From an uncultured Actinomycetes bacterium (GTDB taxonomy: Bacteria; Actinomycetota; Thermoleophilia; RBG-16-64-13): 64,000 bases of DNA. The position numbers were made by a program, and so were the translations under genes. Each line of letters starts with the position of its first letter. Position 1 is the first letter of the stretch. This document shows, one piece after another, positions 27,789 to 46,208 of the stretch. Location: NCBI GenBank assembly GCA_963706025.1, contig CAVPLM010000003.1, positions 384,001 to 448,000 on the forward strand. Reading direction: 5' to 3'. Below the pieces are notes generated by a model. The model had not been told where the DNA came from. It did no database searches and saw only the letters and a list, made by a program, of their open reading frames with translations.

Positions 27789-27799
27789 CTCGCCGGGTA

Positions 27800-28621: not shown

Positions 28622-28679
28622 GATCTCCCCCTGTCGTATCACTGAAGAAGCACGCGTTGCTTGACTCTAGGTTCACTAT

Positions 28680-28699: not shown

Positions 28700-28826
28700 C
28701 CAAGTCCGCTGCGGCGGATTTGCCTGGGCGTCGTGTTTAGCATTGTGTCAATCCATGGTACCGGTTTCGTGTACCTGTCTTCGTGTCCTCTGGTCTGCGT
28801 AGCTTCATCGGCGAAGTAGGGGATGG

Positions 28827-29561: not shown

Positions 29562-29654
29562 GGATGCCGAGGGGGAGGTGAGCCGGCACGAAGTAGGCAG
29601 TGGTTGGGAGACCACGAGTCCGTCGAGTGGTATCAGAGAACGGGAGGGATCGTA

Positions 29655-30803: not shown

Positions 30804-30840
30804 CTCTGGTCAACACGACGGCCACTACAGCAAGGTGATC

Positions 30841-32484
30841 ATGGCAGACAACAGCACAGTCGAACATCCCGCGGATCTGGGCGGGAGCATGGGAGCGACG
30901 GCGGGGGCTTTGGCCCCCGCCGTCGAACTCACAGGCATAACCAAGGCATTTCCAGGAGTGGTGGCCAACAAGGACATCACGCTGTCCCTACACAAGGGCG
31001 AGGTCCATTGCCTGCTCGGCGAGAACGGGGCCGGCAAGTCGACCCTCATGAACATCCTTTCCGGGATGTATCAGCCTGACGAGGGAACCATCAAAGTCGG
31101 CGGCAAAACGGTCGTTGTCGACACGCCCAAGACCGCGATCGAGTTGGGCATCGGCATGGTCTACCAGCACTCCACGATGATCCCGGTATTCACCGTCCTC
31201 GAGAACCTCATGCTGGGGGCGACCGAGAAGGTCCGGCTGGATCGAAAAGCGGCTGAGACTGCCCTCACAGATCTGGCCGGCAAGCTGGGTGTGGAGATCC
31301 AACCCGGAGCGGTCACCGGCAAACTCGCCCTCGGCCAGCAGCAGCAGGTTGAGATCATAAAGGCCCTGTGGTCCGGCTCGAGCGTGCTCATCCTCGACGA
31401 GCCCACGTCGATGCTGACCCCGCAGGGTATCGCCGACCTCGAACGAGTCTTGATGCAACTCAAGCAGCACGGGCTTGCGATGGTGTTCATCACGCACAAG
31501 CTGCACGAGGCTATTGAGATTGGGGACCGTATCTCCGTCCTCAAACAGGGCCGCGTGGTCGGGCGCCTGGAGCCGGAGGATCTGCGCGGGAAGTCTCCGG
31601 ACGACCTGCAGGCAACCATCGTGGGCATGATGTTCGGCGAAGAAGCGCGCTCGCTGAGCGAGGTGGCAGAGGTGAAGCAGTTATCTCGCCTTCAGCGGGA
31701 GAAGCGTGATCTCCCCCCCACCGTTGTGATGGAACTGAACGACGTGAGCGTGAAGGCCGGCCGGGGAGAGGTCGACGTCCATGGAGTCAGCCTGCAGGTG
31801 CGCCAGGGAGAGATCATGGGCATCGCGGGGGTAGACGGCAACGGCCAACGCGAGCTGGCCGAGGCCATAGCGGGCCAGCGTAGGCTGAACCATGGGGATA
31901 TCGTGCTCACGGGTCATTCTGTTGGCAAGTCCTCGGTGGCTGAGCGGCAGAAGCTTGGCCTCCGTTTCGTTACGGACGACCGGTTGGGGGAAGGCATGGT
32001 GGGCTCACTGCCGGTATCACTCAACCTTTTCCTGAAGAGGATCGGAGAGCGTCCCTTCTGGAAGGGTGGCCGGATCCAGGATGACCTAATATGCCAGTCT
32101 GCCGAGGACCTCGTGCGCGATTTCGATATTCGCACACCTACTGTGGAGACGCACTGCGGAGCGCTGTCCGGCGGCAACATCCAGAAGATGGTGTTGGCAA
32201 GAGAGCTCTCCTTCGAACCCAAGGTGGTCGTCTACAACAAACCCACGTACGGACTTGACGTGAAGACCACCCGGGATATCCGGGAGAGGATACGCGAGCT
32301 TTCCGAGAAAGAGGACGTCTCCGCGGTGCTCATATCCACCGACCTCGAGGAGCTGCTCGATCTCTGCGATCGCATCGGCGTTATGTTTCGCGGACGTCTG
32401 ACGGGCGTTGTGGAGAATCACGGTCCCGGTGTCGAGACTCAGGTCGGCAAGTTGATGCTGGGCGGAAAGGGTGATTCCAGTTGA
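30841..32484 (+). CDS. ABC transporter ATPase, two-domain nucleoside/CUT2 type
   Basis: FPGVVAN, GENGAGKSTL, LILDEPT, AGVDGNGQ, LSGGNIQK. Confidence 0.93.
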   Translation: MADNSTVEHPADLGGSMGATAGALAPAVELTGITKAFPGVVANKDITLSLHKGEVHCLLGENGAGKSTLMNILSGMYQPDEGTIKVGGKTVVVDTPKTAIELGIGMVYQHSTMIPVFTVLENLMLGATEKVRLDRKAAETALTDLAGKLGVEIQPGAVTGKLALGQQQQVEIIKALWSGSSVLILDEPTSMLTPQGIADLERVLMQLKQHGLAMVFITHKLHEAIEIGDRISVLKQGRVVGRLEPEDLRGKSPDDLQATIVGMMFGEEARSLSEVAEVKQLSRLQREKRDLPPTVVMELNDVSVKAGRGEVDVHGVSLQVRQGEIMGIAGVDGNGQRELAEAIAGQRRLNHGDIVLTGHSVGKSSVAERQKLGLRFVTDDRLGEGMVGSLPVSLNLFLKRIGERPFWKGGRIQDDLICQSAEDLVRDFDIRTPTVETHCGALSGGNIQKMVLARELSFEPKVVVYNKPTYGLDVKTTRDIRERIRELSEKEDVSAVLISTDLEELLDLCDRIGVMFRGRLTGVVENHGPGVETQVGKLMLGGKGDSS

Positions 32485-33665
32485 GTGATCCTATCGGTCC
32501 TATCGAGAGTGGGCTCGCCGCCGGTCCAGCAGACGGGTCGGCAGAGACCATCGGGAGCGCCGACGTTAGAGTCAGGACCATGGCCCGCAGCAGCTGGAAA
32601 AGGGGCTCGGGTCAGGTCACTCGGGCCATCATCGCCATAGTCGTAGCTCTCATCGTCGGGGGGATCATCCTTCTGCTCTTGGGGCGCAACCCGCTCGCCT
32701 TCTACGCCGACATCTTCAGGGCCGGTGTTCTGAACGGCGGCTGGCAGGATTCGATCACCCGCATGTCCGTCCTTCTGCTGATGGGCATGGGCTACGTCGT
32801 CGCTTTCCGGGGAGGCATCTGGAACATCGGCGGTGACGGCCAGTTCCTGCTGTCCGCAGCTCTCATCGCTGGGGCAGGGCCCGCCTTGTTCGCGGTCATG
32901 CCGCAGGGCTGGGCGCTCATCATCCTGGGCCTGATCGGCATCGTGGTCGGGGGCTCTTGGACTATCGTGCCCTCCTACCTGCGGGCCTCGTACGGGCTGA
33001 ATGAGATCATCACCTCGGTGATGATGTCCTTTCTCGGGATCTATCTCGCGAACATCTTGATCAAGGGGCCGTTCCGCAGTGAGGAGACCACGGTCCCGCA
33101 GACCGACGTTATGCCTTTCGATAAGCTGCTTCCGAAGATCCCGGGGACGACGATCCCCGTCGGTATCTTCGTCGCTCTGGCAGCCGTTGTCGGCCTGCAT
33201 TACGTGATGACCCGCACCTCGATCGGTCTGAGGCTGACAGTGATGGGCGCGAACGCTCGTGCGGCACTACATGCCGGCCTGAAAGTCAGGCGGCTCATCA
33301 TGGCGGCGTTCTTCGCGTCGGGTGCGTTCATCGGGCTCGGGGCCGCTATGGAGATCCTCGGGGTCTGGGGGTATATGCGCGCCGACTGGAATCCCAAGTA
33401 CGGGCTGACGCTTTTCGCGTTGGTGTTCCTCGCCCGTTTGAACGCCTTGGCAGTCATCCCCCTAACAGGCCTGTTCGCGGTTCTGACCATCGGTGGTCAC
33501 ACGGCCTCCAGGAACGCCGACCTGCCCAATGACTTCATGCTTCTGCTCGTCGGCCTCATCCTGCTGTTCATGACCCTTTCCGAGCTCATCAGCATCGGCA
33601 AGGCCAGACGCCGCGTCCTTGGTCAGCGGATCGTGCAGGCGCTTAGGTTGGGGAGGGAGCCATGA
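32481..33665 (+). CDS. ABC transporter permease 1 (nucleoside type)
   Basis: WNIGGDGQF, NEIITSVM and GANARAA motifs; polytopic membrane protein. Confidence 0.9.
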   Translation: MSDPIGPIESGLAAGPADGSAETIGSADVRVRTMARSSWKRGSGQVTRAIIAIVVALIVGGIILLLLGRNPLAFYADIFRAGVLNGGWQDSITRMSVLLLMGMGYVVAFRGGIWNIGGDGQFLLSAALIAGAGPALFAVMPQGWALIILGLIGIVVGGSWTIVPSYLRASYGLNEIITSVMMSFLGIYLANILIKGPFRSEETTVPQTDVMPFDKLLPKIPGTTIPVGIFVALAAVVGLHYVMTRTSIGLRLTVMGANARAALHAGLKVRRLIMAAFFASGAFIGLGAAMEILGVWGYMRADWNPKYGLTLFALVFLARLNALAVIPLTGLFAVLTIGGHTASRNADLPNDFMLLLVGLILLFMTLSELISIGKARRRVLGQRIVQALRLGREP

Positions 33666-34588
33666 CCGTCGCTTTTTGGACGTCGCTTCTAAGCGGGATG
33701 GTCCTTGCCGGGATGCCGCTGCTTTTCACCAGCCTGGGCGAGACGATCTCGGAGCAATCCGGCATTCTCAATATCGGTCTCGAAGGCATGATGCTCGTAG
33801 GGGCGTACGCGGGATTTGTGGCCGCCTTGTACTCGCACTCTCCCTGGGTGGGTGTGATTGCAGGTATCGCAGCCGGAATGGTCATGTCGTCTATCATGGC
33901 CGTCTTCTGTGTGCGTTTGGGCTTGGATCAGATCGTGGTCGGTATCGCCATCTTACTTCTCGGCGAAGGTTTGACCAGCCTCCTTCATGGGGCCCAATTC
34001 GGTACTTCCTACCCTCGCCTTGAGGGGATGATGAGAATCGAGATCCCTCTTCTGTCGAAGATCCCGGTCATCGGCCCGAGCATCTTCAGCCAGCCCCTGA
34101 TCTTCTGGGTGGGAATCGCCCTGGTGATCGTCGTGCGCTGGGTGCTCAGGTCCACCAACTGGGGACTTAATATCCGCGCCGCGGGGGAAAAGCCCGGTGC
34201 GTTGGACGCTGCCGGGGTCAACGTCACCTGGACCCGGACGGCGGCCGTTCTTGCGACCGGTGGTTTCGCGGGCATCGGCGGTGCCTACATGGCCATCGTT
34301 GCGTCGGGGATCTTCGTGCCCTTCATGACCAACGGCCTTGGGTTCATCGCCATCGTGATCACCATGCTCGCGCGGGGCCGCGCCTTGTGGGCACTGGTTG
34401 GCTCGTTCCTGTTCGGCATCTGTCTGCAGATCGGGACCTCGCTGCAGGTGGCGGGGATCAATATCCCCACCGACGTCATCTTCATGCTGCCGTTCTTGGT
34501 GGTCATGATCGTCCTCATCATCTCCGCCCGCCAGGCTTATCTGCCGGCGGCTCTTTGTGTCCCCTACAAGCGCGGGCAACGAGGATGA
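33662..34588 (+). CDS. ABC transporter permease 2 (nucleoside type)
   Basis: LGETISEQSGILNIGLEGMML, IRAAGEKP, GFIAI, PAALCVPY. Confidence 0.92.
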   Translation: MTVAFWTSLLSGMVLAGMPLLFTSLGETISEQSGILNIGLEGMMLVGAYAGFVAALYSHSPWVGVIAGIAAGMVMSSIMAVFCVRLGLDQIVVGIAILLLGEGLTSLLHGAQFGTSYPRLEGMMRIEIPLLSKIPVIGPSIFSQPLIFWVGIALVIVVRWVLRSTNWGLNIRAAGEKPGALDAAGVNVTWTRTAAVLATGGFAGIGGAYMAIVASGIFVPFMTNGLGFIAIVITMLARGRALWALVGSFLFGICLQIGTSLQVAGINIPTDVIFMLPFLVVMIVLIISARQAYLPAALCVPYKRGQRG

Positions 34589-34645
34589 GTCGCGGCGACC
34601 AGCTGGCGACCATCCCTCCTGGCCGAATGAAAGGAGTTGGTGCAG

Positions 34646-35821
34646 ATGCGCCCCGCTGATTTTACTGTGAGCGCAGGCCCCACCACGGTCTCGGCCGAGG
34701 TCATGGCGGCCATGGGTCAACCCATCATCTACCACTACGACCCCTCATTTCTGGAGACTTTCAAGAGAACCGTCGACAAGGCGGCCGAGGTCTTCGGGAC
34801 CAAAGAAGACGTGATACTGATGCAGGGAGAGGCGGTCGTTGGCCTCGAGGCCGCAGGCAGGGCTTGTGTCCGGCCGGGAATGAAGGTGGTCAACCTCGTT
34901 TCCGGGGTATTCGGCAAAGGCATGAGCGACTGGCTCAACATGTGGGGCGCGGACGTCATCGATATCACCGTGCCTTACAACGACGCCATAGCGCCCGAGG
35001 CCGTCGAGGAGGCTCTCAAGGAGCATCCCGACGTCGAGCTCGTGGCCATGGTGCACTCGGAGACGCCGTCGGGCACTCTCAATCCGGTGGCGGAGATCGG
35101 TCCGATGGTGCGGGCCCATGGGGCGGTCAGTATCGTAGACTGCGTCTCGTCGCTCGCCGGCATGCCGTTCCACCCGGATGAGTGGCAGTTGGACATCTGC
35201 GTCTCGGGGGCCCAGAAGTGCCTTTCCGGACCTCCCGGGATAACCCCGATGACTGTGAGCAAGCAGGCCTGGGCCCTCATCGACAAGAATCCGGCCGCGC
35301 CTCGCTGGTCTTTTGTGGCTCTGCTCGATTGGCGCGAGATCTATCTGAAGGGCGGTCGCTTCCCGTTTACCCCCTCGGTTTCCGACGTATTCGGACTGGA
35401 AGCCTGCCTCGACTGGGTGCTGGAGCAGGGCATCGACAATGCCATTGCCCAGCACACTATCGCCGCGGAGGCCTGCCGGGCGGGAGCGAAAGCCATGGGT
35501 CTCAAGCTGTGGGCCAGGAGCGAGGCCATTATGTCCACCTGCACCACGGCCATCACCGTTCCCGAGGGGTTGACCGACATCCAGGTGCGCAATCATGTGC
35601 GCGAGCGCTACGGGGTACAGATCTCAGCCGGCCAGAACGCCGGCAACCTGATCCGCATCGGCCACATGGGCGTCACCGCGCGGTCGCTGTACCCGGTCGT
35701 GGGGCTTTCCGCCGTCGGTCGCGGTCTCACTGACCTGGGGGCGAAGGTCGACGTGGGGGCTGGTGTCGAAGCTGCTCTCGAGATCATCAGCAGGGCTGCC
35801 GCACGAGGAGGTGCCAGTTGA
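34646..35821 (+). CDS. ppaT: Pyridoxamine-pyruvate aminotransferase (class V)
   Basis: Schiff-base Lys in GAQKCL; GEAVVGLEAA replaces the usual GSGTxAMEAA. YDP.F, SGVFGKG, VPYN.AI.P, NP.APR.S, FPFTPSVS and RIGHMG match, from memory, the M. loti enzyme. Confidence 0.85.
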   Translation: MRPADFTVSAGPTTVSAEVMAAMGQPIIYHYDPSFLETFKRTVDKAAEVFGTKEDVILMQGEAVVGLEAAGRACVRPGMKVVNLVSGVFGKGMSDWLNMWGADVIDITVPYNDAIAPEAVEEALKEHPDVELVAMVHSETPSGTLNPVAEIGPMVRAHGAVSIVDCVSSLAGMPFHPDEWQLDICVSGAQKCLSGPPGITPMTVSKQAWALIDKNPAAPRWSFVALLDWREIYLKGGRFPFTPSVSDVFGLEACLDWVLEQGIDNAIAQHTIAAEACRAGAKAMGLKLWARSEAIMSTCTTAITVPEGLTDIQVRNHVRERYGVQISAGQNAGNLIRIGHMGVTARSLYPVVGLSAVGRGLTDLGAKVDVGAGVEAALEIISRAAARGGAS

Positions 35822-36228
35822 GCCACGTGGAGTTCGACAAGGACAAGTGCACGGACTGTCGCATGTGCATGCAGATCTGTTCGATGAACAAGCTGGGGCG
35901 GGTTACGCCGGCAGCGGCGTGCATCCAGATCGATAGGGAGCGCTCCAAGTACTACGGCGACATGGGCTGCCGGGTCTGCGACATGACCCACGAGCGGGCC
36001 TGCGTGGATGCCTGTCCGGTGGAGGCGCTGATCTACGAGCCGGATCTGGACGTGGTCCGGTTCGACGCCGAGTTGTGCACGGAATGCCTGGCCTGTCTGG
36101 ACGTCTGCCCGAATGTGGCGAGAGATGTGAGGTCCGGCCGGATAATGATCTGCGACCTTTGCGACGGCGACCCCTTGTGTGTCAAGTGGTGCCCCGAAGG
36201 CGCGCTCTCATGGGGGGCAGAGGCATGA
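35818..36228 (+). CDS. 4Fe-4S dicluster protein, small subunit for AOR-1
   Basis: CTDCRMCMQIC, CRVC...CVDACP, CTECLACLDVCP, CDLC...CVKWCP; overlaps the AOR start (ATGA). Confidence 0.9.
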   Translation: MSHVEFDKDKCTDCRMCMQICSMNKLGRVTPAAACIQIDRERSKYYGDMGCRVCDMTHERACVDACPVEALIYEPDLDVVRFDAELCTECLACLDVCPNVARDVRSGRIMICDLCDGDPLCVKWCPEGALSWGAEA

Positions 36229-38030
36229 AATACGGCGGATACATGGGCAAGTTCCTCACCGTCGATCTTTCGACCGGTGCCACCGGCACTTGGGACACCC
36301 CGGACGAAATGGCGGAGAAGTACCTTGGCGGCCGCGGGTTCATCGCCAAGATGCTCTACGATCGGCTGGCGCCGAAGATCGATCCCTTGGGACCCGAGAA
36401 CGTGATCATCTTCGCCACCGGCCCGGCGACGGGGACTCTGGTGCCCACCACAGGGCGGATCGCCATCGGCGTGAAGAGCCCACTCACCAACACCATCTCG
36501 GCAAGCTACCTGGGCGGCCACTTCGCCGGTCAGGTGAAGTACGCGGGCTACGACGGGATCATCATCACGGGGGTCTCGCCGACGCCGGTGACCCTGGTGA
36601 TCGATGACGACAGAGTCAGTCTGCGCGATGCCTCGGGCATCTGGGGCAAAGACACCAAAGAGTCGCAGGACATCCTGCGGGCGGAGTTGGGCGAAGGCTT
36701 CGAGATCGGCGCCATCGGCCCGGCGGGAGAGAATCTGGTGCCCATCGCCACCTTCATGCACGTGCAGAGAGCAGCCGGTCGTGGTGGGTCCGGAGCGGTG
36801 TTCGGCTCCAAGAAACTGAAGGCCGTGGCGGTGCGCGGCACGGGCGGCATCAGCGTGGGGACGCCGGCGAACGAGTTCATCCAGGGTTGCAAGGAGATGC
36901 ACGACATCATCATGGCCAACCCGGTGCGGCCCGCCTTCCGGTATGCCGGCACGACGGGCATGCTCCCGGTAATGAACGAGGTCGTGGGGTTGCCCTACAT
37001 GAACCATCAGGACGACAAGGCTCCGGATGTGAGCTTCATCCACAACGAGGAGATCTACAAGTACGTCAACAAGATCGAATCATGCGCCGGCTGCAATGTG
37101 TTCTGCGGCGCGGTGGTGGAGTTCGAGCGAGGTGGGAAGCGCTATCGCACCGAGCGCTTGGATCACGAGTCGACCTGGGCTCTCGGTCCCAACTGCGGGA
37201 TCGTCGATCTCCCGGCTCTCATGGAAGCCAACATGCTCTGCGACTATCTGGGCCTCGACACCATGAGCGCGGGCGGCGCGATCTCCTGGGCCATGGAGAT
37301 GACGCAGCGGGGTCTGCTCAGCAAAGAGGAGACGGACGGCCTGGACTTCAGTTTTGGCAACGCCGACGTCTTGGCCCCCGCCATCCGGAGCATGGCCGCC
37401 CGGCAGGGATTCGGCGATCTCCTGGCCCGAGGCAGCCGGGAAGCGGCCCGACTCGTCGGCCGGGGTGAGGAATACGCCATGCAGGTGAAGGGGCTGGAGA
37501 TGTCGGCCTATGCGCCCCGGGGCTTCACCGGCATGGGCTTGAGCTTTGCCACCACCAGCCGAGGAGCCGATCACAACAAGGCCTTCACGGTGGCGGCCGA
37601 GTTTCTAGGGGTGCTCGGGAACTACGACCGTTACGCGCTGGAAGGCAAGCCTCATCTGGTCAAGACCATGCAGGACAGCACCTGCATCATCGACTCGCTC
37701 ATCATGTGTATGTTCACCGTGGACCTAGGGATCGGCATCGATCTGTATGCCAAGTGCGCGGCTCTGCCCACGGGAATGAGGTTCACCGAAGAGGACGTCT
37801 ACACGGTGGGTGAGCGCATCAATACGGTCGAGCGCCTGTTCAACATGAACGAGGGGTTCACTCGCGCTGACGACAATCTTCCGCCGCGTTTTGCCAGAGA
37901 AGCGGCGCCGTCCGATCCGGGGCACCACACCTTGGACGTGACGGCCGTTATGGACGAGTACTACGCGGAGCGCGAGTACGACAGCGAGGGTGTGCCCACT
38001 CCGGCTCTGCTGGAGAGATTGGGTATCTAG
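36225..38030 (+). CDS. Aldehyde:ferredoxin oxidoreductase family protein 1 (tungstopterin)
   Basis: GYMGKFLTVDL, YLGGRG, KSPLT, IGPAGENLV, AAGRGGSGAVFGSKKLKA, CAGCNVFC, CDYLGLDTMS, RGADH. Confidence 0.93.
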   Translation: MKYGGYMGKFLTVDLSTGATGTWDTPDEMAEKYLGGRGFIAKMLYDRLAPKIDPLGPENVIIFATGPATGTLVPTTGRIAIGVKSPLTNTISASYLGGHFAGQVKYAGYDGIIITGVSPTPVTLVIDDDRVSLRDASGIWGKDTKESQDILRAELGEGFEIGAIGPAGENLVPIATFMHVQRAAGRGGSGAVFGSKKLKAVAVRGTGGISVGTPANEFIQGCKEMHDIIMANPVRPAFRYAGTTGMLPVMNEVVGLPYMNHQDDKAPDVSFIHNEEIYKYVNKIESCAGCNVFCGAVVEFERGGKRYRTERLDHESTWALGPNCGIVDLPALMEANMLCDYLGLDTMSAGGAISWAMEMTQRGLLSKEETDGLDFSFGNADVLAPAIRSMAARQGFGDLLARGSREAARLVGRGEEYAMQVKGLEMSAYAPRGFTGMGLSFATTSRGADHNKAFTVAAEFLGVLGNYDRYALEGKPHLVKTMQDSTCIIDSLIMCMFTVDLGIGIDLYAKCAALPTGMRFTEEDVYTVGERINTVERLFNMNEGFTRADDNLPPRFAREAAPSDPGHHTLDVTAVMDEYYAEREYDSEGVPTPALLERLGI

Positions 38031-38073
38031 CCGGTTTTCGGATGCTTCTGGCCGAGGAAGAGGAGGAACGGCT

Positions 38074-38313
38074 ATGCGGGTGGAGGTAGCCTTGTTTGGT
38101 CAATACTCGCGGCTGCTCCCTCCGGAGAGCAAGAACGGGCGTGCGGCTCTCGAGGTGGATCAGGCGGCCACGGTCGGCCGAGTGCTGGACCGGCTCCAGA
38201 TACCTCCCGAGGGTCGGACCTACGTGACGGTGAACGACAAGCATGTCGGTCAAGAGACCGTCTTGTCGGAGGGCGACGAGATCCGGGTGATAGTCCCGCT
38301 CGGCGGCGGTTGA
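38074..38313 (+). CDS. MoaD/ThiS-family sulfur carrier
   Basis: 79 aa; LSEGDEIRVIVPLGGG di-Gly C-terminus; GGAGG RBS; follows an AOR gene. Confidence 0.9.
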   Translation: MRVEVALFGQYSRLLPPESKNGRAALEVDQAATVGRVLDRLQIPPEGRTYVTVNDKHVGQETVLSEGDEIRVIVPLGGG

Positions 38314-38362
38314 TGGCCTGCCGGCGGGCGATGGCGAGCGAGGGCCCTGGGGAGCAGTGTGA

Positions 38363-39154
38363 ATGATCAGACAGGCGCGCAACAAAGGTATTCCGCTGTA
38401 CTACCAGGTGATGCGGAGCCTGAAGGAGGACATCCTTTCGGGACGCTGCGCCCCCGAGAAGCAGCTTCCTTCAGAGGCTGAGCTCACGAAGATCTTCAAC
38501 GTGAGCCGTGTGGTGGTGCGGCAGGCGCTCGAGATGCTGGAAGATGAGGGTCTGATCGTGCGAGTCCGGGGCAAGGGGACCTTCGTATCCAAAGACGCGG
38601 CGGCGGATGAAGCCCCCGTGCTCTCCGGCTATATCGAGGATTTCCTGCGCGTAGGCTGGGCCCTTGAGGTGAAGGTACTGGAGTTCGGGCTCGTCAAGGC
38701 CAGTCCCGATCTGGCTTCGGTCTTCAAAGTGGCGGAGGCCAGCGATCTCTTCCACGTGAAACGGCTCCGCCTGGTCGAGAGCCGGCCGTTCTCGGTCGTC
38801 GAGAACTACCTACCCTACGAGTTGGGAAGGCATATTCCCATGGCGCTTCTGGAAGACGAGCCGCTCATGACCCTGATCGAGAAGCATGTGGGGGTCTCCA
38901 TCGAATGGGCGTCCCAGGTCTTTCAGGCGGTCTCGGCCGACGCCGATCTGGCCGCTCTTCTGGATGTCGACGTCATGGCTCCCATCTTGAAGATGACGCT
39001 CACCGCATACACCGCGGAGAGCGAAGCGGTGAATTTCGCCAACGTCTACTACCGGTCCGATCGTTACAACCATCACGGCTACCTGCGCCGGCGGCGAACA
39101 AGCGACCATCTGACGTGGACCGCGGTCGAACGCATCCACGCGATGGGGGCTTGA
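38363..39154 (+). CDS. GntR-family regulator (HutC/UTRA subfamily)
   Basis: PLYYQV, LPSEAEL, VSRVVVRQAL, RGKGTFV; UTRA-type C-terminal domain ending YYRSDRY. Confidence 0.93.
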   Translation: MIRQARNKGIPLYYQVMRSLKEDILSGRCAPEKQLPSEAELTKIFNVSRVVVRQALEMLEDEGLIVRVRGKGTFVSKDAAADEAPVLSGYIEDFLRVGWALEVKVLEFGLVKASPDLASVFKVAEASDLFHVKRLRLVESRPFSVVENYLPYELGRHIPMALLEDEPLMTLIEKHVGVSIEWASQVFQAVSADADLAALLDVDVMAPILKMTLTAYTAESEAVNFANVYYRSDRYNHHGYLRRRRTSDHLTWTAVERIHAMGA

Positions 39155-39182
39155 GTCCAGACGATCTCAAAAGGAGGATGGC

Positions 39183-40220
39183 ATGCGGGCTTTACGTCTC
39201 ATGGCGGCGGGGGATCTCAGGGTGGACGACGTACCCGATCCCCAGATCAAGAACGGCAAGAACGCCGTCCTCGCGGTCACCAAGACCGCCATATGCGGAG
39301 CCGATCTCCTGCCCTATTGGGGCTATGTGCCGGGTTTCGAATGGGGCACCACAATGGGGCACGAGTTCGTCGGCGTGGTTAAGGAGGTGGGCGCGGCGGT
39401 CGCTCAGGTCAAGCCCGGTGACCGGGTCGTGTGCTCCTCGATGACCTCGTGCGGTGTGTGCTGGGCCTGCCGCCGTGGGATGCAGCCACAGTGCGAGAAC
39501 CGGGCTCTTTTCGGCTTTTCCGGGGCGTACCCGCGGTTGGACGGAGGCCAGGCCGAGCAGGTGCTGGTCCCCAACGCCGACCGCGACCTGTGGCTACTCC
39601 CGCCTGAAGTGTCCGATGATGCCGGGGTGTTCGTGGCCGACATTCTCTCCACCGCCTTTCGTGGGGTCGAGCAGGCCGACGTCAAGATGGGCGATACGGT
39701 AGCGGTGGTCGGATGCGGTCCTGTCGGTCTCATGGCCATCCTGAGCGCACGGCTCATCGCGGGAATGGTCATCGCCGTGGACACGGTCCCAGCGCGGCTC
39801 GAACAGGCTCAGGCCATGGGGGCGGTGACCATCGATGCCTCCACTCAGGATGCCGTGGCCGCTGTGATGGACCTCACCGGCGGACGCGGTGCCAAGGCGG
39901 TCATCGAGTGCGCAGGCGGAGTCCCTGCACTCACGTCCGCCATGCAGATGGTGCGGGTGCGGGGCACCGTGAGCGTTATCGGCGCTCACTTCGAGCCCGA
40001 TTTCCCCTTGGACGCGGGAGGCATGTTCGCCAAGGAAACCACCTTGAGGTTCTCGATCGGAGCTCCAACCGACGATCGCGAGACAGTGCTCGACCTGCTC
40101 CGGCTGGGCAGGATCGATCCCACGCCCACGATCTCCCATCACATGAGTCTGGAAGATGCGCCCGAGGCCTACAAGCTTTTCGAGGCTCGGGAGGCCACCA
40201 AAGTGGTGTTGACGCCCTAG
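39183..40220 (+). CDS. Zn-dependent medium-chain alcohol dehydrogenase
   Basis: CGAD, GHEFVG, structural Zn site CGVCWAC...C, DILST, GCGPVG. Confidence 0.93.
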   Translation: MRALRLMAAGDLRVDDVPDPQIKNGKNAVLAVTKTAICGADLLPYWGYVPGFEWGTTMGHEFVGVVKEVGAAVAQVKPGDRVVCSSMTSCGVCWACRRGMQPQCENRALFGFSGAYPRLDGGQAEQVLVPNADRDLWLLPPEVSDDAGVFVADILSTAFRGVEQADVKMGDTVAVVGCGPVGLMAILSARLIAGMVIAVDTVPARLEQAQAMGAVTIDASTQDAVAAVMDLTGGRGAKAVIECAGGVPALTSAMQMVRVRGTVSVIGAHFEPDFPLDAGGMFAKETTLRFSIGAPTDDRETVLDLLRLGRIDPTPTISHHMSLEDAPEAYKLFEAREATKVVLTP

Positions 40221-40273
40221 CCGGTCTCGGGGGCGTCCTCAAAGCGAGGCGAGACTCGAATGATTACGTATAA

Positions 40274-40293
40274 ATGTATTAGAATGATGACAA
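40274..40293 (+). promoter_or_regulatory. Candidate operator, copy 2, overlapping a -10 box (TAGAAT) upstream of the Fe-ADH operon
   Basis: ATGTATTAGAATGATGACAA in an AT-rich island, 14/20 identical to the site at 28680-28699. Confidence 0.5.
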
Positions 40294-40312
40294 GTTAGGA
40301 GGGCAGTACATC

Positions 40313-41461
40313 ATGGCGAACGCGCAGTTCTTTTTCTTGGGTACGAGGCTGGTTCACGGTCTTGGTGCGGTCGCGGGCCTCGCGGGGCACGTGAAGGCCC
40401 TGGGCGGTACCAAGGTCTTCTTGTGCACGGACAAGGGTCTCAGCAGCGCGGGGGTGACCGAGAAGGTCGCCGGCGTCTTGGCGGCGGATGAGATCCCGTT
40501 CGTGACTTTCGACGACGTGCCGGAGGATCCCGGGGTCGCGGTGGTGGATGCGGGGGTTAAGCTTTTCCAAGAGGAGAAATGTGACCTGGTCGTGGCTCTC
40601 GGCGGCGGTAGCCCGATGTGCGCGGGCAAAGGCATCGCCCTGGTGGCCATGAACGGAGGCAAGCTGACCGACTACGAAGGATTCAACAAGGCAGCCAAGG
40701 CTCCGTATCCCGTGATAGCGATCCCCACGACCGCCGGGTCGGGCACCGAGGTGTCGAAGGTCAACATCCTCACCGATGAGGCCCGCAACTTCAAGATGTC
40801 CTTCCTGGACGAACGGACCTTCCCGAAGATCGCTCTTCTGGACGGGGAATTGATGGCGTCGCTTCCGGCAAGACCGGCGATCGTGGCCGGCATGGACGCA
40901 CTGGCCCACGCTCTGGATGCCCTGTGGTCCGTCAACTCCACCCAGATATCGGACAGCCTGGGGGTCGCGTCCGCGGCCACCATCTTCGAGACTCTGCCCC
41001 GAGCGGCGTTCACCGGCGACCTGGCAGCCAAGCAGAAGATGCTGGAGGCCAGCTCGATTGCCAACATCGCGCTGGGGACGGCACTCCCCGGCTTGGCTCA
41101 CGTACTGTCGCAGCCCCTGGGCAGGTATCACATGGCTCACGGCCTGGCCACGGGCATCATGCTTCCCTACACCATGGAGTTCAACCTTCCCGTGGCCGCG
41201 GCCAAGATGGCGCCCATCGCCCGGCTGCTCGGCGAGAGCGGGAGCGACCGGGAGCTGGCTGAGGTGTTGCTCGAGCGGCTGTGGGGACTCATGGGCGAGT
41301 TGGACTTCCCCACCTTCCTCGACCCCGAAGTGGTGAAGGAAGAAGACCTGCCCGTCTTGGTAGAACAGTGCACCAAGGTCGTCAACTACCGCCTGAACGT
41401 GAGGTTTGCTTCTCCCGCCGACCTCACCGGCCTGTATCTGTGTGCACTCGGAAAGGAGTGA
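40313..41461 (+). CDS. Iron-containing alcohol dehydrogenase
   Basis: ALGGGS, IPTTAGSGTEVS, GMDALAHA and GLAH...AHG metal ligands. Confidence 0.93.
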   Translation: MANAQFFFLGTRLVHGLGAVAGLAGHVKALGGTKVFLCTDKGLSSAGVTEKVAGVLAADEIPFVTFDDVPEDPGVAVVDAGVKLFQEEKCDLVVALGGGSPMCAGKGIALVAMNGGKLTDYEGFNKAAKAPYPVIAIPTTAGSGTEVSKVNILTDEARNFKMSFLDERTFPKIALLDGELMASLPARPAIVAGMDALAHALDALWSVNSTQISDSLGVASAATIFETLPRAAFTGDLAAKQKMLEASSIANIALGTALPGLAHVLSQPLGRYHMAHGLATGIMLPYTMEFNLPVAAAKMAPIARLLGESGSDRELAEVLLERLWGLMGELDFPTFLDPEVVKEEDLPVLVEQCTKVVNYRLNVRFASPADLTGLYLCALGKE

Positions 41462-41463
41462 CA

Positions 41464-43345
41464 ATGGAGGCGACACCTCGTGGCTCCTGGTGGGGCAGGA
41501 GTCCTTTTCGTCGATGTTGGTACCGGCGAGACGCGGGAGGAAGCCCTGGACTGGGACGCGGCCCGCGATTTCATCGGCGGGCGCGGCCTCGGAGCCTACT
41601 ACCTCTTCAAGCATCTGGTGCCGGGCACCGACCCCTTGAGCCCGGACAACCCGCTGATCTTCGCGGGCAGCCCCATGTCGGGCACCTCCTGCCCCGGCTC
41701 GGCCCGGGGCGCGGTGGTGACCAAGTCGCCCCAGAGCGGGATCTACACGTTCGCGATCACCGGGGGCGAGCTGGGACCGGCCCTCAAGCGGTCGGGCTAC
41801 GACGTGATCATCCTCACCGGCAAAGCCGAGAAGCCGGTCTACGTGGAAGTGGGTCCGGACGGCGCAGAACTACGTGACGCTTCTCATCTCTGGGGCTTGG
41901 ACACACAGTCGACCCAGGAACTCATCAAGAAAGAGCGACGGGGTGAAGACCTGGCCATCACCTGCATAGGGCAGGGAGGCGAGCGGCTGGTGCCTTACGC
42001 CTGCCTGATCAACGAGCGTCGCGCTCTTGGCCGGGGCGGTCCGGGTGCTGTCATGGGCTCGAAGAACGTGAAGGCCCTTGTGATCAAGAAAGACGGACCC
42101 GCGGCGCCGCTCGCCGATCCGGCGGCGTTTCGCGAGGCTGCGCGAAACGCCACCTTCCAGTGCCGCGACAACCCCTTTACCTCGGGGCCACTGAAGACGT
42201 TCGGGACGGTGAGCACTGTGGCAGTCACCGTCAACGGGGCCATCATGCCGGCGGACAACTGGCAGCGCATGACCACTGTCGAGGAGGGCAAGAACCTTTT
42301 CGGCAACGTGCTCCGCGAGAAGTTCTTGGTCAAAGACGTGGCCAGCGGCGAACCCTGCAACATCAAGTGCTCGAAGATCACGGTGGTGAAGGACGGACCC
42401 TTTGCCGGCGCCTCGACGGAAGGACCGGAGTACGAGACCATCTATGCTTTCGGCACCGGCTGCGGCATCTTCGACTTCGCGCCCATCATCGAAGCCGACA
42501 GGATGTGTGACCTCTATGGCATCGACACCATGTCGGTGGGAGTGACCATCATGTTCGCCATGGAATGCTACGAGAAGGGTCTCATCACCAAGGAAGACAC
42601 CGGCGGCATCGACCTGCGTTTCGGCAATGCCGAGGCCATGGTGAAGCTGGTGCACGACGCTGCTTTCCGGCAAGGCTTCGGCGAGAAGATCGCCAGGGGC
42701 TGCCGCGCCCTGGCTGCCGAGATCGGGCAAGGCAGCGAAGCCTTCGCCATGCACACCAAGGGCGTGGAGGTCGGCGGGTACGACCCGCGGGGCGCCAAGG
42801 GCATGGCCCTGGTCTACGGTTGCGGCCCCCGGGGCGGCTGCCACCACGCCGGTGGCTACACCGTCCAGTTGGAGTTCACCAATCCCGATATCGACCGCTA
42901 TGCCGACTCGGGCAAAGTCCCCATCGTCCTCATGACCCGTAACCGCAGGGCCGCGGCAGCGGACTCGGGCGGTACCTGCGCGTTCCTCACGGTGGGCATG
43001 GACAACGACGTCCTCGCCGGCATGCTCTCGGCAGCCACCGGCAATCCGATGACGGTGCAGGACATGATGCTGGCGGGCGAGCGGATCAGCATGCTGGAGC
43101 GGGTGCTCAACGTGCGCGAAGGTCTGCGGGCTGCAGACGACGTTATTCCCCGGCGGCTGATCGAGGAGAGCGTCCCCGACGGACCGACCGCGGGACACAT
43201 GGTCGATTGGGATCTCATGCATAGGGAGTTCTATCAAGCCAGCGAACTGGACCCGATAACGTCGCTCCCCACCAAGGATAAGCTTGCGAAGATGAACCTG
43301 ACCTGGGTGCTCGACGATCCTGTGGTCGCGGCCCTGGCCGGCTAA
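41464..43345 (+). CDS. Aldehyde:ferredoxin oxidoreductase family protein 2 (start 41464 with one extra base at ~41500, or GTG 41480)
   Basis: FIGGRGLG, TKSPQSG, GRGGPGAVMGSKNVKA, EGPEYET, CDLYGIDTMS, YDPRG, RGGCH. The AAGGAG RBS precedes ATG 41464. Confidence 0.92.
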
Positions 43346-43354
43346 GGAGGAGAA

Positions 43355-44950
43355 GTGGCCTACTACCGCGACTTCAGGGAGTACGTCGCGAAGCTGGATG
43401 AGATGGGCCTGTTGCGGCGGGTCTCCACCCCCATCAACAAGGATACGGAGCTGATGCCGCTGGTCAGGCTCCAGTTCCGGGGACTACCGCCGGAACAGCG
43501 TACCGCCTGGGTGTTCGACAACATCCACGACGTGCTGGGCAAGAAGTACAACGGGTCTCTGGCCGTCTGCGTGCTCGGCGGAAATCGCGCGATCTATGCG
43601 GCAGCCCTGGGCTGCGAACCGGAAGAGATCAGCAAGAAGTGGGCCCAGGCCCACCAGAGCTGCATCGAGCCGAAGCTGGTCAAGGACGGGCCCTGCAAGG
43701 AAGAGATCCACGTGGGCGACAACCTGCTCGAGCACGACGGCATCCTGGAGTTCCCCCATCCCATATCGACGCCCGGCTTCGATCCCGCGCCCTTTTTTAC
43801 GTCGCCCTACTGGGTGACGAAGGACCCCGAGACCGGCCAGCGCAACATCGGCACGTACCGGGCCATGGTCAAAGGACCGGCCCGCACCGGGGTGATGGCC
43901 CACCAGTCGCAGCACATAGGTATCCACTTCCAGAAGATCCAGCGGCAGGGTGAGCATCGCCTGGATGCCGCGGTGGTCATCGGCTGCGCACCGGCCGTGG
44001 GTTTGTGCAGCGTGGCCAAGGTGCCGTACTCGGTGGACGAATACACGCTGGCGGGGGGTATCGCGGGCGAGCCCATCGAGCTGGTGAAGTGCGAGACTGT
44101 TGACCTGGAGGTGCCGGCGACGGCCGAGATCGTCATCGAAGGCTGGGTGGACACCACCTTCCGGGAGAAGGAAGCCCCCTTCGGCGAGTACACCGGGTAC
44201 ATGGGCGGCCGGGTGATCAACCCGGTCTTCAACGTGACCGCCATCACCCACCGTAAGAACCCCATCTATCAGGCGTTCCTCAGCCAGTTCCCTCCCTCAG
44301 AGAGCAGCCTCATCCGCAAGCTGGCCTATGACGCCGCCTATCTCAAATTCCTGCAGCACGACTGCAACATCCCAGGCGTGCTCGATGTGCAGTTGCATGA
44401 GTCCACCGGCAGTTACGGGCTGATGGTGATCCAACTCAATAAGACCCATCCGGCCCAGCCTTGGCAGGCTTTGAACGCGGCCGTGGCCTTCGATCCCACT
44501 ATCGGCAAGGTGATCGTGGCCGTGGACGACGACATCGATCCCAACGACGCCGACGCCGTGAACTGGGCCATGGCCTTCCGCATGCAGCCTCACCTCGACA
44601 CTCGGATCACCACCGGCAAGGCGTCCATCCTCGATCCCTCGTCGGCGCCGCCGGAGGCTTCGGTGGACGTGCAGCGCTTCCCGCCGCCGGTGGGGACGTC
44701 GTCTCTGCTCATCGATGCCACGAGGAAGTGGGGCTACCCGCCCACTTCGCTCCCGGCCAAGGAGTTCATGGAGGCGGCGCTCGAACGGTGGCAGGCGGAG
44801 GGCCTGCCGGCGCTCAGTCTCAAGAAACCATGGTTCGGCTACGAGCTGGGCCACTGGACCGACGAAGAACGCGAGGACGCCGCCAAAGCCATCCGCGGCG
44901 AGTACCTCGACACCGGCGAGAAGCTTCAACAACATCGCGAGGATCTGTGA
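43355..44950 (+). CDS. UbiD-family (prFMN-dependent) decarboxylase, catabolic paralogue
   Basis: RNIGTYR, VPATAEIVIEG, EAPFGEYTGY, FPPSES, VDDDIDP, LIDATRK. Confidence 0.92.
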   Translation: MAYYRDFREYVAKLDEMGLLRRVSTPINKDTELMPLVRLQFRGLPPEQRTAWVFDNIHDVLGKKYNGSLAVCVLGGNRAIYAAALGCEPEEISKKWAQAHQSCIEPKLVKDGPCKEEIHVGDNLLEHDGILEFPHPISTPGFDPAPFFTSPYWVTKDPETGQRNIGTYRAMVKGPARTGVMAHQSQHIGIHFQKIQRQGEHRLDAAVVIGCAPAVGLCSVAKVPYSVDEYTLAGGIAGEPIELVKCETVDLEVPATAEIVIEGWVDTTFREKEAPFGEYTGYMGGRVINPVFNVTAITHRKNPIYQAFLSQFPPSESSLIRKLAYDAAYLKFLQHDCNIPGVLDVQLHESTGSYGLMVIQLNKTHPAQPWQALNAAVAFDPTIGKVIVAVDDDIDPNDADAVNWAMAFRMQPHLDTRITTGKASILDPSSAPPEASVDVQRFPPPVGTSSLLIDATRKWGYPPTSLPAKEFMEAALERWQAEGLPALSLKKPWFGYELGHWTDEEREDAAKAIRGEYLDTGEKLQQHREDL

Positions 44951-44981
44951 GAACCATTGAAGGAATTGAAGGAGGGCACTG

Positions 44982-46208
44982 ATGGCCGATCTATCCGTCG
45001 ATTTTGCGGGTCTTAAGCTCAAGAACCCGTTCATCATCGCGTCGTCCGAGCTGACCAACAAGATCGACAAGATCAAGATCGCCGAGGAGCATGGAGCCGC
45101 GGCCGTCAGCACCAAGCTGACCTTCTTGCAGATCCCTCTGTACGCCCGTCCCTATCACATCATCGAAAAGGAGGGCGCCTTCTACTCGCCTTCCGGTGAG
45201 CGCATGCGGGTAGATCAGACCCAGCGACTCGTCCAGCAGTGCAAGGAGCAGACCGACCTCAAGGTCATCGCCAACATGATGGGTCCGGGTGAGGATCTGG
45301 AGGGCTGGGCGAAGCTGGCCCGCGCTCTGGAAGAAGCCGGCGCCGACATGCTGGAGCTCAACATGTCCTGCCCGAACCTGGGTCTGATGGCAAAGCAGAT
45401 GGGTGTGGACGAGGAGCCGGAGCTGGGGGCGACACTCGGCAAGGACCCGGTGCTGGCCGGGAAAGTGACCAAGGCCGTCACCGACGCCGTGAAGATCCCT
45501 GTCATGCCCAAGATGACCCCTGAGGCCAACACCATGATGGTGTCGAAGTCGGTCCAGAAGAACGGCGCCGCGGCCGTCTCGGCCATCAACTGCCCACAGT
45601 CGCTGCCCCCGCTGGACATCGACCACGGTGGCCGGCCGTTCTATCCCTCCACCGGCAACCAGTCCTACGCCGGCCTCTGCGGTCCTTGGATCCGGCCGCT
45701 GGCCTATCGGCACGTGGCTCAGATGCGCACCGTCTGCCCCGACCTGCCCATCGCCGGCGGCGGCGGGCTGATGAACTGGCGCCATTCGGTAGAGATGATC
45801 ATGTACGGCGCCACCGTGCTCACTTACTGTTCGCTGCTCTACCTCAAGGGCTACAAGGCCTTCACCAAGATAGAGCCGGGCATGCACAAGTTCATGGACG
45901 AGCACGGCTACAAGACCCTGGCCGACATGCGGGGGATCGCGCTCGAGTACATCGTCACCCCCAAAGAGGTGGACTACATACCGATGCTCCCGGAGTTCGA
46001 CCTGGAGAAGTGCAACGGTTGCGGGCTGTGCGCCGCGCCGGGGCATTGTGAGTGCATCGAGATCGTGGACAAGAAGGCCGTGCTGGTGCAACCGAAGGAA
46101 TGCTATTCCTGCGCCGTCTGCTACTTCCTCTGCCCGAAAGACGCGATCACCATGAAGAACGCGCCGATCGAAGAGACCCGGGCAGGTGTGGCGCTGATGG
46201 AGCAGTGA
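44982..46208 (+). CDS. PreA-like (dihydropyrimidine/dihydroorotate dehydrogenase family) FMN reductase with C-terminal 2x[4Fe-4S] domain
   Basis: LSVDFAGLKLKNPFIIAS, ELNMSCPN (catalytic Cys), KMTP, GPWIRPLA; CNGCGLC and CYSCAVCYFLCP. Confidence 0.85.
   Translation: MADLSVDFAGLKLKNPFIIASSELTNKIDKIKIAEEHGAAAVSTKLTFLQIPLYARPYHIIEKEGAFYSPSGERMRVDQTQRLVQQCKEQTDLKVIANMMGPGEDLEGWAKLARALEEAGADMLELNMSCPNLGLMAKQMGVDEEPELGATLGKDPVLAGKVTKAVTDAVKIPVMPKMTPEANTMMVSKSVQKNGAAAVSAINCPQSLPPLDIDHGGRPFYPSTGNQSYAGLCGPWIRPLAYRHVAQMRTVCPDLPIAGGGGLMNWRHSVEMIMYGATVLTYCSLLYLKGYKAFTKIEPGMHKFMDEHGYKTLADMRGIALEYIVTPKEVDYIPMLPEFDLEKCNGCGLCAAPGHCECIEIVDKKAVLVQPKECYSCAVCYFLCPKDAITMKNAPIEETRAGVALMEQ

Follow-up and report, generated by a model that had tools for sequence, protein, structure and literature searches.

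Two tungsten-type aldehyde oxidoreductases in a candidate oxygen-independent vitamin B6 catabolic cluster of Thermoleophilia

Can vitamin B6 be broken down without oxygen, with both of its side arms oxidised to acids by tungsten enzymes? This question is raised by a stretch of DNA from an uncultured bacterium of the Thermoleophilia (contig CAVPLM010000003.1, positions 384,001 to 448,000; the whole 64 kb are hereafter called the window), in which two genes for aldehyde oxidoreductases (AORs), AOR-1 and AOR-2, stand among genes resembling those of vitamin B6 catabolism. Both known routes of B6 breakdown depend on oxygen. The accessible part of PMC3538738 describes only these two, and vitamin catabolism in general has been called largely understudied (2026, PMC13492142). 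Our literature search, which left subscription journals largely uncovered, brought up no paper that connects B6 catabolism with AORs, with UbiD or with anoxic conditions, and an anoxic B6 route in which two dedicated tungsten enzymes turn both arms into acids appears not to have been described. On balance, we lean towards the view that positions 35818 to 43345 of the window would encode the enzymes for side-arm oxidation in a vitamin B6 catabolic cluster that works without oxygen. In particular, AOR-1 and AOR-2 each fall into a clade specific to this type of cluster, and the cluster, as judged by gene order, recurs across three to four phyla.

The two aldehyde oxidoreductases

Genes were called from the listing of open reading frames (ORFs), with Pfam and NCBIfam scans of the window proteins. 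The window has a GC content of about 64% and sits on an 882-kb contig of a 3.66 Mb genome (completeness 92%, contamination 7%); in a protein search, the relatives of its genes came from Thermoleophilia metagenome-assembled genomes (MAGs). From the gene for a probable pyridoxamine-pyruvate aminotransferase (PPAT) through the one for a UbiD-family decarboxylase (34637-44950), every gene lies on the + strand. The preliminary description of this DNA had seen an iron-sulfur (Fe-S) subunit, AOR-1 and a MoaD-like protein directly after PPAT, and the ORF listing, Pfam and NCBIfam all bear this order out; a zinc-type alcohol dehydrogenase (Zn-ADH) after a GntR regulator, and an iron-type one (Fe-ADH) with AOR-2 directly before UbiD, are likewise found as described. 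What is more, PPAT and the Fe-S gene overlap by four bases (TTGA), and so do the Fe-S gene and AOR-1 (ATGA).

AOR-1 (36225-38030, + strand) is an AorB-like aldehyde oxidoreductase of the tungsten type, covered over its full length by the Pfam domains AFOR_N and AFOR_C (250 and 393 bits, cut-offs 29.8 and 27), and the same two domains span AOR-2 (41480-43345, + strand; 231 and 379 bits). Among solved chains, AOR-1 scores 423 bits against the Pyrococcus furiosus AOR 1aor, 421 against AorB of 8c0z, 293 against FOR 1b25, 213 against BamB and 196 against WOR5; the corresponding values for AOR-2 are 418, 317, 248, 160 and 216 bits. The NCBIfam model of GAPOR gives only 56 bits for AOR-1 and 40 bits for AOR-2. 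By these scores, both proteins are AORs sensu stricto as opposed to relatives of the solved FOR, WOR5 and BamB, a placement that rests on bit scores against the solved chains and the GAPOR model. We presume the metal to be tungsten, for which a nearby transporter and molybdenum cofactor genes are only indirect evidence.

When aligned to 1aor, the motifs DHES and RGADH of AOR-1, as well as EYET and RGGCH of AOR-2, fall on the Glu/His pair that we take to be the active-site pair of that enzyme. AOR-1 keeps all four cysteine ligands of the cluster (CAGCNVFC, residues 287-294, nucleotides 37083-37106, and DSLIMC). AOR-2 has three of the four: its motif ASGEPCNIKC (residues 288-297; 42341-42370, + strand) begins with Ser and is one residue longer, with S-G lying over the first cluster Cys of C-x2-C-x3-C. 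The preliminary description had remarked on this replacement of the first Fe-S Cys relative to AOR-1, and the presence of both motifs, together with the alignment to 1aor, confirms it. In an alignment of 116 AOR-2-family proteins longer than 550 amino acids, collected by protein search, the AOR-2 group reads C-x3-C-x3-C as against the canonical C-x2-C-x3-C. The first position is Ser in 14 of the 116 rows (P0002-P0015, 80-99% identical) and Cys in the other 102, namely in the next 33 (P0016-P0048) and in 69 remoter rows, 7 of which are without the third Cys. Since 14 related rows share the Ser, the substitution is no sequencing error. It is confined to the lactonase-bearing variant of the cluster (the window and genome G001), all other AOR-2 orthologues, including those of Desulfobacterales and SAR324, having Cys. 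Judging from this distribution, the change from Cys to Ser is recent and lineage-specific, and the motif is a variant inside the AOR family that gives no ground for excluding AOR-2 from it.

The gene ahead of AOR-1 (35818-36228, + strand) encodes an AorA-like polyferredoxin subunit of 136 amino acids, in whose translation four Cys motifs can be read (4x[4Fe-4S]); its best solved relatives are the Fe-S subunit of WOR5 (6x1o_B, 58 bits), AorA of Aromatoleum aromaticum (8c0z_C, 55 bits) and 9mqx_E. Behind AOR-1 follows a small MoaD/ThiS-like protein ending in GGG (38074-38313, + strand; Pfam ThiS, E 3e-10), a putative AorD-like maturation factor. AOR-2 is without an Fe-S subunit of its own. A gene for an AorC-like FAD/NAD subunit was found neither within 27800-54118 nor in the cluster variants examined, the rest of the genome not having been searched; as no cluster variant has such a gene, NAD is an unlikely electron acceptor.

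Vitamin B6 markers and conservation of the cluster

Which pathway do these enzymes belong to? The PPAT gene (34637-35821, + strand) encodes a class V aminotransferase that reaches 432.9 bits against NCBIfam NF046070 (cut-off 600), the next family giving 210, and 365.5 bits against the Mesorhizobium loti PPAT 2z9u, the next solved chain giving 150.6. A 4-pyridoxolactonase with a metallo-beta-lactamase fold is encoded divergently from the other cluster genes (27800-28642, - strand). It reaches 380.1 bits with the NCBIfam equivalog family NF047925 (cut-off 325) and 322.6 bits with its M. loti counterpart 3aj3, as against 97 for the next solved chain. Between these two genes lies a Bmp-type ABC importer (29604-34588, + strand; Pfam Bmp, ABC_tran and BPD_transp_2), made up of a binding protein (29604-30803), an ATPase (30835-32484) and two permeases (32481-33665 and 33662-34588). 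The sole NCBIfam match of the binding protein is "putative B6 ABC transporter substrate-binding protein", at 356 bits with a cut-off of 400. Taken together, these markers make it likely that this variant of the cluster serves vitamin B6. Aerobic Microbacteriaceae keep the Amidohydro_2 gene discussed below, the lactonase, the Bmp-type ABC system and PPAT, and they carry a GMC oxidoreductase and no AOR, which fits a displacement of an oxygen-dependent step by AORs.

The conservation of this arrangement was examined in loci found by searches with AOR-2, PPAT and AOR-1 and mapped with the window proteins by tblastn (E at most 1e-8 to 1e-10, query coverage at least 40-50%). The set of AOR-1 loci comprises 24 members (L151-L174), each with an AOR-1 relative of at least 48% identity. 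An AorA-like gene precedes AOR-1 in all of them, a PPAT-like gene is found in 21 (it is absent in L164, L166 and L171), and PPAT, AorA and AOR-1 are adjacent in 21 of the 24. The co-occurrence of homologues with PPAT, on which the preliminary description had staked its reading, is thus observed, and the reading is not refuted on this count. An AOR-2 relative lies within the available flank in 18 loci; as for the remaining ones, the contigs of L153 and L172 are short, L156 carries a frameshift, the second AOR of L165 is a different one, the sequence of L163 stops shortly behind UbiD, and L171 has another context.

Within the Thermoleophilia, the cluster is modular and comes in four variants. 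Variant A (the window, L151, L152, L154 and L167) has the Amidohydro_2 gene, the ABC system, PPAT at 82-90% identity, AorA/AOR-1, MoaD, GntR, Zn-ADH, Fe-ADH, AOR-2 with Ser, UbiD and a PreA-like gene, and the lactonase beside it is confirmed in the window, L055, L056 and G001. Variant B (L155-L162, L168 and L169) has neither lactonase nor Amidohydro_2 gene, its Zn-ADH is absent or stands directly behind AOR-1 (L155, L159 and L161), and its PPAT-like gene is 33-37% identical to that of the window, with PPAT still the best family at 345-352 bits. Variant C (L163 and L165) combines a lactonase (393 bits in G009) with PPAT (68-69%), AOR-1, Zn-ADH, UbiD and PreA, and its complete genome (L165/G009) also has a different AOR and a divergent Fe-ADH. 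Variant D (L164 and L166) consists of AorA/AOR-1, Fe-ADH, AOR-2 and UbiD, with neither PPAT nor Zn-ADH. In the genomes examined for the lactonase (lactonase-less Thermoleophilia and the three from Desulfobacterales, SAR324 and the further deltaproteobacterium), nothing exceeded 73 bits, the exception being G009, where it stands beside the cluster; the lactonase-less ones all keep both AOR clades. Loci below about 40% identity to either AOR show no cluster markers, save distant Fe-ADH- and Zn-ADH-like matches (27-31%) beside archaeal AORs, and PPAT-like genes in an actinomycete (L069) and in Limnochordia (L070) have unrelated surroundings.

An AOR in a cluster is unremarkable in itself, since the genome has 19 PF01314 matches, which amount to 15 full-length AOR ORFs with 29-38% identity to AOR-1 or AOR-2. 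However, a tree from a quick maximum-likelihood search over 42 rows (the 15 own paralogues and 27 distinct locus sequences, 4 identical duplicates having been left out) gives an SH-aLRT support of 100 to the AOR-1 clade, with 14 rows, as well as to the AOR-2 clade, with 10, Desulfobacterales and SAR324 among them; neither clade holds any own-genome paralogue besides the window's own AOR-1 or AOR-2. In this respect the two AOR modules of the preliminary description stand, both AORs being cluster-specific. Its picture of two ADHs plus two AORs is incomplete, as some variants have the lactonase in addition, and Zn-ADH is found in 9 of the 24 loci. Elsewhere in the genome, two AOR paralogues lie directly beside class III aminotransferases (L137:3158-6372 on contig C14 and L141:4501-7817 on C3), and another (C5:975489) has its own Fe-S subunit and NuoE/NuoF-like genes. 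With aminotransferase-AOR pairs occurring twice more, the sequence amine to aldehyde to acid looks like a recurring design of this genome.

The cluster reaches beyond the Thermoleophilia. AOR-1 relatives of 48-53% identity are found in one Desulfobacterales, one SAR324 and one further deltaproteobacterial MAG; the first two clusters were read gene by gene, and the third (L174) has the same order by tblastn alone. In Desulfobacterales and SAR324, an AOR-2 relative (49%) is followed in order by genes for a solute symporter, a regulator and a PPAT-like protein (identity 42-44%; 399 bits for the one from Desulfobacterales), then by AorA, AOR-1, PreA (62%), UbiD (41%), a 316-amino-acid dehydrogenase, an M29-like protein and Xdh subunits, behind which SAR324 has an Amidohydro_2 gene and a B6-type binding protein (389.5 bits, cut-off 400). 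The counterparts of AOR-1 and AOR-2 in these distant genomes are 48-53% identical to them, as against 29-38% for the paralogues in their own genome. No Fe- or Zn-ADH was found in the Desulfobacterales and SAR324 clusters. There, and only there, a gene resembling FHMPC dehydrogenase takes the place of Fe-ADH: the best solved relative of the 316-amino-acid protein is the M. loti FHMPC dehydrogenase 4om8 (270 bits, next 215), and among NCBIfam families it scores highest with FHMPC_DH (336 bits; cut-off 500), ahead of 274 bits for the next. The three redox enzymes of the cluster are thus AOR-1, Fe-ADH and AOR-2 in Thermoleophilia, and AOR-1, the FHMPC-dehydrogenase-like protein and AOR-2 in Desulfobacterales and SAR324. 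After PPAT, the logic of aerobic route I is aldehyde to acid, alcohol to aldehyde and again aldehyde to acid, giving the dicarboxylate, and three redox enzymes in each cluster version fit these three redox steps.

Of the two dehydrogenases, Fe-ADH (40313-41461, + strand; Pfam Fe-ADH and ADH_Fe_C) belongs to group III, has NAD(P)-dependent methanol dehydrogenases as its best solved relatives (219 bits) and adjoins AOR-2 in 15 of the 24 AOR-1 loci. Zn-ADH (39183-40220, + strand; Pfam ADH_N and ADH_zinc_N; best solved relative 4cpd, 246 bits) is an accessory, and its position directly behind AOR-1 in three lactonase-less loci fits a pairing of Zn-ADH with AOR-1 and of Fe-ADH with AOR-2. The UbiD-family decarboxylase (43355-44950, + strand; Pfam UbiD and UbiD_C) scores 255.7 bits against NCBIfam TIGR00148, with a cut-off of 244.85, and follows the second oxidation module in all variants. 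Next comes a PreA-like reductase with the fold of dihydropyrimidine and dihydroorotate dehydrogenases (44982-46208, + strand; Pfam DHO_dh), which gives 232 bits against NCBIfam PreA (cut-off 335) and has a C-terminal 2x[4Fe-4S] region, with ferredoxin-type matches on residues 325-401. No PreT-like partner was found in any cluster variant. In the Desulfobacterales and SAR324 versions, the PreA-like gene stands directly after AorA/AOR-1 (L206:8951-12417 and L207:13999-17521), a position suggestive of electrons passing from the AOR to the ring reductase. Farther downstream, window positions 46234-53095 hold an Xdh-family molybdenum enzyme (FAD, 2Fe-2S and Mo subunits) with MocA/YqeC, XdhC and YqeB, which are maturation genes of selenium-dependent molybdenum hydroxylases. 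Xdh genes are also present in the Desulfobacterales and SAR324 versions, and none were detected behind PreA in the variant A loci L002 and L006, where both AORs remain.

The Amidohydro_2 gene (28827-29561, + strand; Pfam PF04909, E 2e-31) adjoins lactonase and PPAT modules in L055, L056, L058, L061 and L210, and the SAR324 cluster that includes it is L207. The family includes metal-dependent decarboxylases of ortho-hydroxy aromatic acids, and this protein might be the 4-decarboxylase, leaving another role to UbiD. A second small cluster of the same genome, outside the window (C3:858655-862363; L150:4656-8363), has three genes, coding for a paralogue of the 4-pyridoxolactonase (276 bits, cut-off 325), a VdcC-like UbiD decarboxylase (398 bits) and an aminotransferase of class III; its substrate may be a related lactone or hydroxy-aromatic acid.

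As for regulation, a HutC-type GntR/UTRA regulator (38363-39154, + strand; Pfam GntR and UTRA) is encoded between MoaD and Zn-ADH. Two AT-rich stretches, at 28665-28705 and 40253-40298, share TAATACAT, once in the divergent intergenic region of lactonase and Amidohydro_2 (28692-28699, + strand) and once upstream of Fe-ADH (40274-40281, - strand), the only other copy in the window. Similar AT-rich stretches ending in TAATACA/TAGTACAAGT occur at the same two positions in the orthologous loci L056, L055, L154 and L164. These stretches may be a candidate operator of the GntR regulator, albeit a weak one: TAATACAT was chosen after both regions had been seen, and the shuffle statistic (2 found, 0.08 expected) overstates the case. 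Scans of 27500-45500 gave no signal for promoter-like sites (1 against 3.3 expected) or for terminator-like ones (11 against 8.9 expected).

The window stretch is present in freshwater and sediment metagenomes of 12 studies. Two RNA-labelled sediment runs yielded short contigs on AOR-1, GntR, PPAT and Zn-ADH with 92-100% likeness: in run X20, they lie on 36450-36696, 37107-37290 and 38385-38625, and in run X19, whose labelling as RNA is conjectural, on PPAT, the Fe-S gene, AOR-1 and Zn-ADH. As RNA-labelled libraries may contain DNA, such contigs are not counted as expression here, and the parts they leave uncovered are uninformative. No gene for a haem-copper oxidase (COX1) was found in the 92%-complete genome, which, like the freshwater and sediment origin of the metagenomes, fits an oxygen-independent route. 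Elsewhere in the window, 17 kb upstream of the AOR genes, the region 11308-18140 encodes a PBP_like_2/TOBE ABC transporter of the tungstate or molybdate type and, behind it, a MobA-MobB fusion, MoaA, MoaC and two proteins with a MOSC and a MoCF_biosynth domain, respectively. An NAD-dependent DNA ligase (7968-10072) is split into two overlapping ORFs in different frames, with adenylation, OB and Zn domains on 7968-9590 and the BRCT domain on 9212-10072, pointing to a frameshift or an assembly error.

A proposed route and the competing explanations

Substrates, catalytic direction and metal are our own assignments in what follows, made from gene identity, order, synteny and clade specificity as observed. 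The Bmp-type ABC system would import pyridoxamine, PPAT would turn it into pyridoxal, and Zn-ADH, where present, would provide a further entry by oxidising pyridoxine to pyridoxal. AOR-1, an AorB-type enzyme wired to the AorA-like polyferredoxin and presumably co-translated with PPAT, would oxidise pyridoxal to 4-pyridoxate. Fe-ADH would then act on 4-pyridoxate, oxidising its 5'-hydroxymethyl group and so yielding the 5-formyl intermediate, and AOR-2 would convert this aldehyde to 3-hydroxy-2-methylpyridine-4,5-dicarboxylate, pulling the unfavourable alcohol oxidation forward, after which UbiD would decarboxylate the dicarboxylate. Both aldehyde oxidations would hand low-potential electrons to Fe-S carriers. 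The lactonase, in turn, would be an accessory entry for 4-pyridoxolactone, which the cell could import or form from the pyridoxal hemiacetal. The preliminary description had likewise put AOR-1 on pyridoxal and Fe-ADH with AOR-2 on the 5' arm; the adjacency of PPAT to AorA/AOR-1 and of Fe-ADH to AOR-2 and UbiD agrees with this; on the 4' arm, a lactone route would exist side by side with AOR-1. Its further claim that these would be new substrate classes for tungsten enzymes was too strong. According to the accessible parts of PMC9295118 and PMC10413684, the A. aromaticum AOR acts in vitro on heterocyclic aldehydes, which it oxidises, and on nicotinic acid, which it reduces, nicotinate and its aldehyde being interconverted (PMC9295118).

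That said, several points weigh against the assignment of the two AORs to the side arms of B6. The lactonase implies a path from pyridoxal through the lactone to 4-pyridoxate that needs no AOR, which would make AOR-1 partly redundant here. PPAT (433 of 600 bits) and the binding protein (356 of 400) both stay below the NCBIfam equivalog cut-offs, and the PPAT-like gene of variant B is so divergent (33-37%) that its amine substrate could differ. L164 and L166 have AOR-1 without any PPAT, and L171, from the Chloroflexota, has an AOR-1 relative with none of the other marker genes of the cluster. The tree rests on a quick search only and includes no named WOR4 or GAPOR reference sequences. A pocket for pyridoxal or FHMPC in the AORs is likewise a supposition. 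Finally, AORs sensu stricto are typically broad in substrate range, as stated in the accessible part of PMC10413684.

The lactonase in particular invites the explanation that this is indeed a B6 cluster, in which the AORs act elsewhere. The 4' arm would be oxidised via a hemiacetal dehydrogenase and the lactonase, and one or both AORs would act on isopyridoxal or on a semialdehyde from ring opening, or the two arms would be swapped. The 4-pyridoxolactonase is a bona fide one, AOR-1 persists in the two PPAT-less loci just mentioned, the Xdh-family molybdenum enzyme of the cluster could itself be an aldehyde oxidase, and the aerobic pathway does yield succinic semialdehyde, according to the accessible part of PMC3538738. 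Nevertheless, we regard this explanation as unlikely: both AOR clades are kept by the lactonase-less genomes examined (at most 73 bits, G009 excepted) and by the two loci in which no Xdh genes were detected behind PreA, the overlaps and the adjacency in 21 of 24 loci bind AOR-1 to PPAT, and each of the two cluster versions has as many redox enzymes as there are side-arm steps. A less probable explanation still is that the conserved core degrades another N-heteroaromatic compound with an aminomethyl and a hydroxymethyl group, such as the thiamine-derived HMP or its amine, and that B6 was added together with the lactonase. The scores of the variant B PPAT-like protein (345-352 bits, far below 600), the missing lactonase and Amidohydro_2 gene in that variant, and the PreA-like, i.e. 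dihydropyrimidine-dehydrogenase-like, nature of the reductase would all agree with it. Against it, PPAT is by far the best family in all variants (next 160-220 bits), the Desulfobacterales and SAR324 versions have the FHMPC-dehydrogenase-like gene, with a B6-type binding protein at 389.5 bits in SAR324, and a pyrimidine with a single arm would need no two AOR clades.

Two further explanations seem to us highly improbable. One is that the AORs run in reverse for salvage, 4-pyridoxolactone being hydrolysed and the resulting 4-pyridoxate reduced to pyridoxal, which would be kept as the vitamin. Tungsten AORs are reported as the sole known reducers of non-activated acids in the accessible part of PMC9295118, and 4-pyridoxate and 4-pyridoxolactone are released catabolites according to that of a preprint (bioRxiv 10.64898/2026.01.20.700305); however, salvage would need one AOR and not two conserved clades, and the UbiD, ring reductase, molybdenum hydroxylase and hydrolases around them make sense only for breakdown. 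The other is that the two proteins are general aldehyde detoxifiers that merely happen to lie here, as the 19 PF01314 matches of this AOR-rich lineage and the likeness of both to the broad-range P. furiosus AOR could suggest. Yet in three to four phyla the orthologues keep to this cluster and form two separate clades, neither of which holds another paralogue from the same genome.

We therefore retain the oxidation of both B6 side arms by AOR-1 and AOR-2 as the preferred, if provisional, interpretation, to which the gene order shared between phyla lends considerable weight. A much bolder extension of it, which as a whole we consider doubtful and offer only tentatively, would make the two dedicated AOR clades the front end of a complete oxygen-free mineralisation of B6 in Thermoleophilia, Desulfobacterota, SAR324 and perhaps Chloroflexota. 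Low-potential electrons from the two aldehyde groups would pass through AorA to the PreT-less PreA-like reductase, which would spend them on dearomatising the hydroxypyridine ring, and this internal electron loop would replace the oxygenase of the aerobic route, with the Ser-for-Cys exchange of AOR-2 tuning the electron flow in the lactonase-bearing lineage. If the side-arm interpretation is true, the genes of the cluster would be the first candidates for what becomes of B6 vitamers and 4-pyridoxate in anoxic sediments, and tungsten AORs would gain a defined, pathway-specific physiological role. The cluster would also offer two natural AORs tuned to hydroxypyridine aldehydes, of interest for biocatalytic interconversion of acids and aldehydes, and show a module-by-module replacement of oxygen-dependent steps.

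Relation to known pathways and enzymes

How does the cluster compare with known systems? With aerobic pathway I (Pseudomonas MA-1 and M. loti) it shares 4-pyridoxolactonase and a probable PPAT as entry enzymes, and its proposed logic is the same, both arms leading to a dicarboxylate that is then decarboxylated (the outline is from the accessible part of PMC3538738). The Desulfobacterales and SAR324 versions even keep a gene resembling the FHMPC dehydrogenase of that pathway. The window's own genome has no equivalent, its best FHMPC_DH match lying outside the window at 223 bits against a cut-off of 500, and the two tungsten-type AORs with Fe-ADH and Zn-ADH would stand in for the GMC and FHMPC enzymes. 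Aerobic relatives carry a GMC flavoprotein; Pfam finds neither a GMC nor a flavin monooxygenase domain among the cluster proteins, the whole genome not having been searched. Presumably, UbiD takes the position that another decarboxylase holds in the aerobic route, and the PreA-like reductase with the selenium/molybdenum hydroxylase takes that of its oxygenase. The repressor of the M. loti pathway is, we believe, of the GntR type, like the regulator in the window.

At the level of the enzymes, the P. furiosus AOR 1aor is the best solved relative of both AORs, which keep its Glu/His pair and its D-x-x-x-x-C segment, the latter presumably supplying the fourth cluster Cys. The AOR-2 clade differs from it in reading C-x3-C-x3-C, with Ser first in the window's subclade, and AOR-1 differs in being a two-subunit enzyme. 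AOR-1 is equally close to AorB of the A. aromaticum AorABC complex (8c0z), and the likeness extends to the four-cluster AorA-like subunit directly upstream and to the MoaD-like gene downstream, the A. aromaticum construct listing aorD and aorE (accessible part of PMC10413684). The A. aromaticum enzyme also takes a pyridine carboxylate, nicotinate, as given in the accessible part of PMC9295118. In contrast to that system, the window's Fe-S subunit has 136 amino acids as against 192 in the solved chain, the cluster variants have no AorC gene, and AOR-1 would belong to a dedicated pathway and not to general detoxification.

Finally, the nicotinate fermentation of Eubacterium barkeri is an anaerobic way of opening a pyridine carboxylate, by means of a selenium-dependent molybdenum hydroxylase, a ring reductase and amidohydrolases. 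That pathway, we assume, includes no side-arm oxidation and hence no AOR or ADH modules, and its reductase is of a different family. Downstream of UbiD, that said, the window has like gene types, namely Xdh subunits, YqeB/YqeC, a PreA-like reductase and hydrolases.

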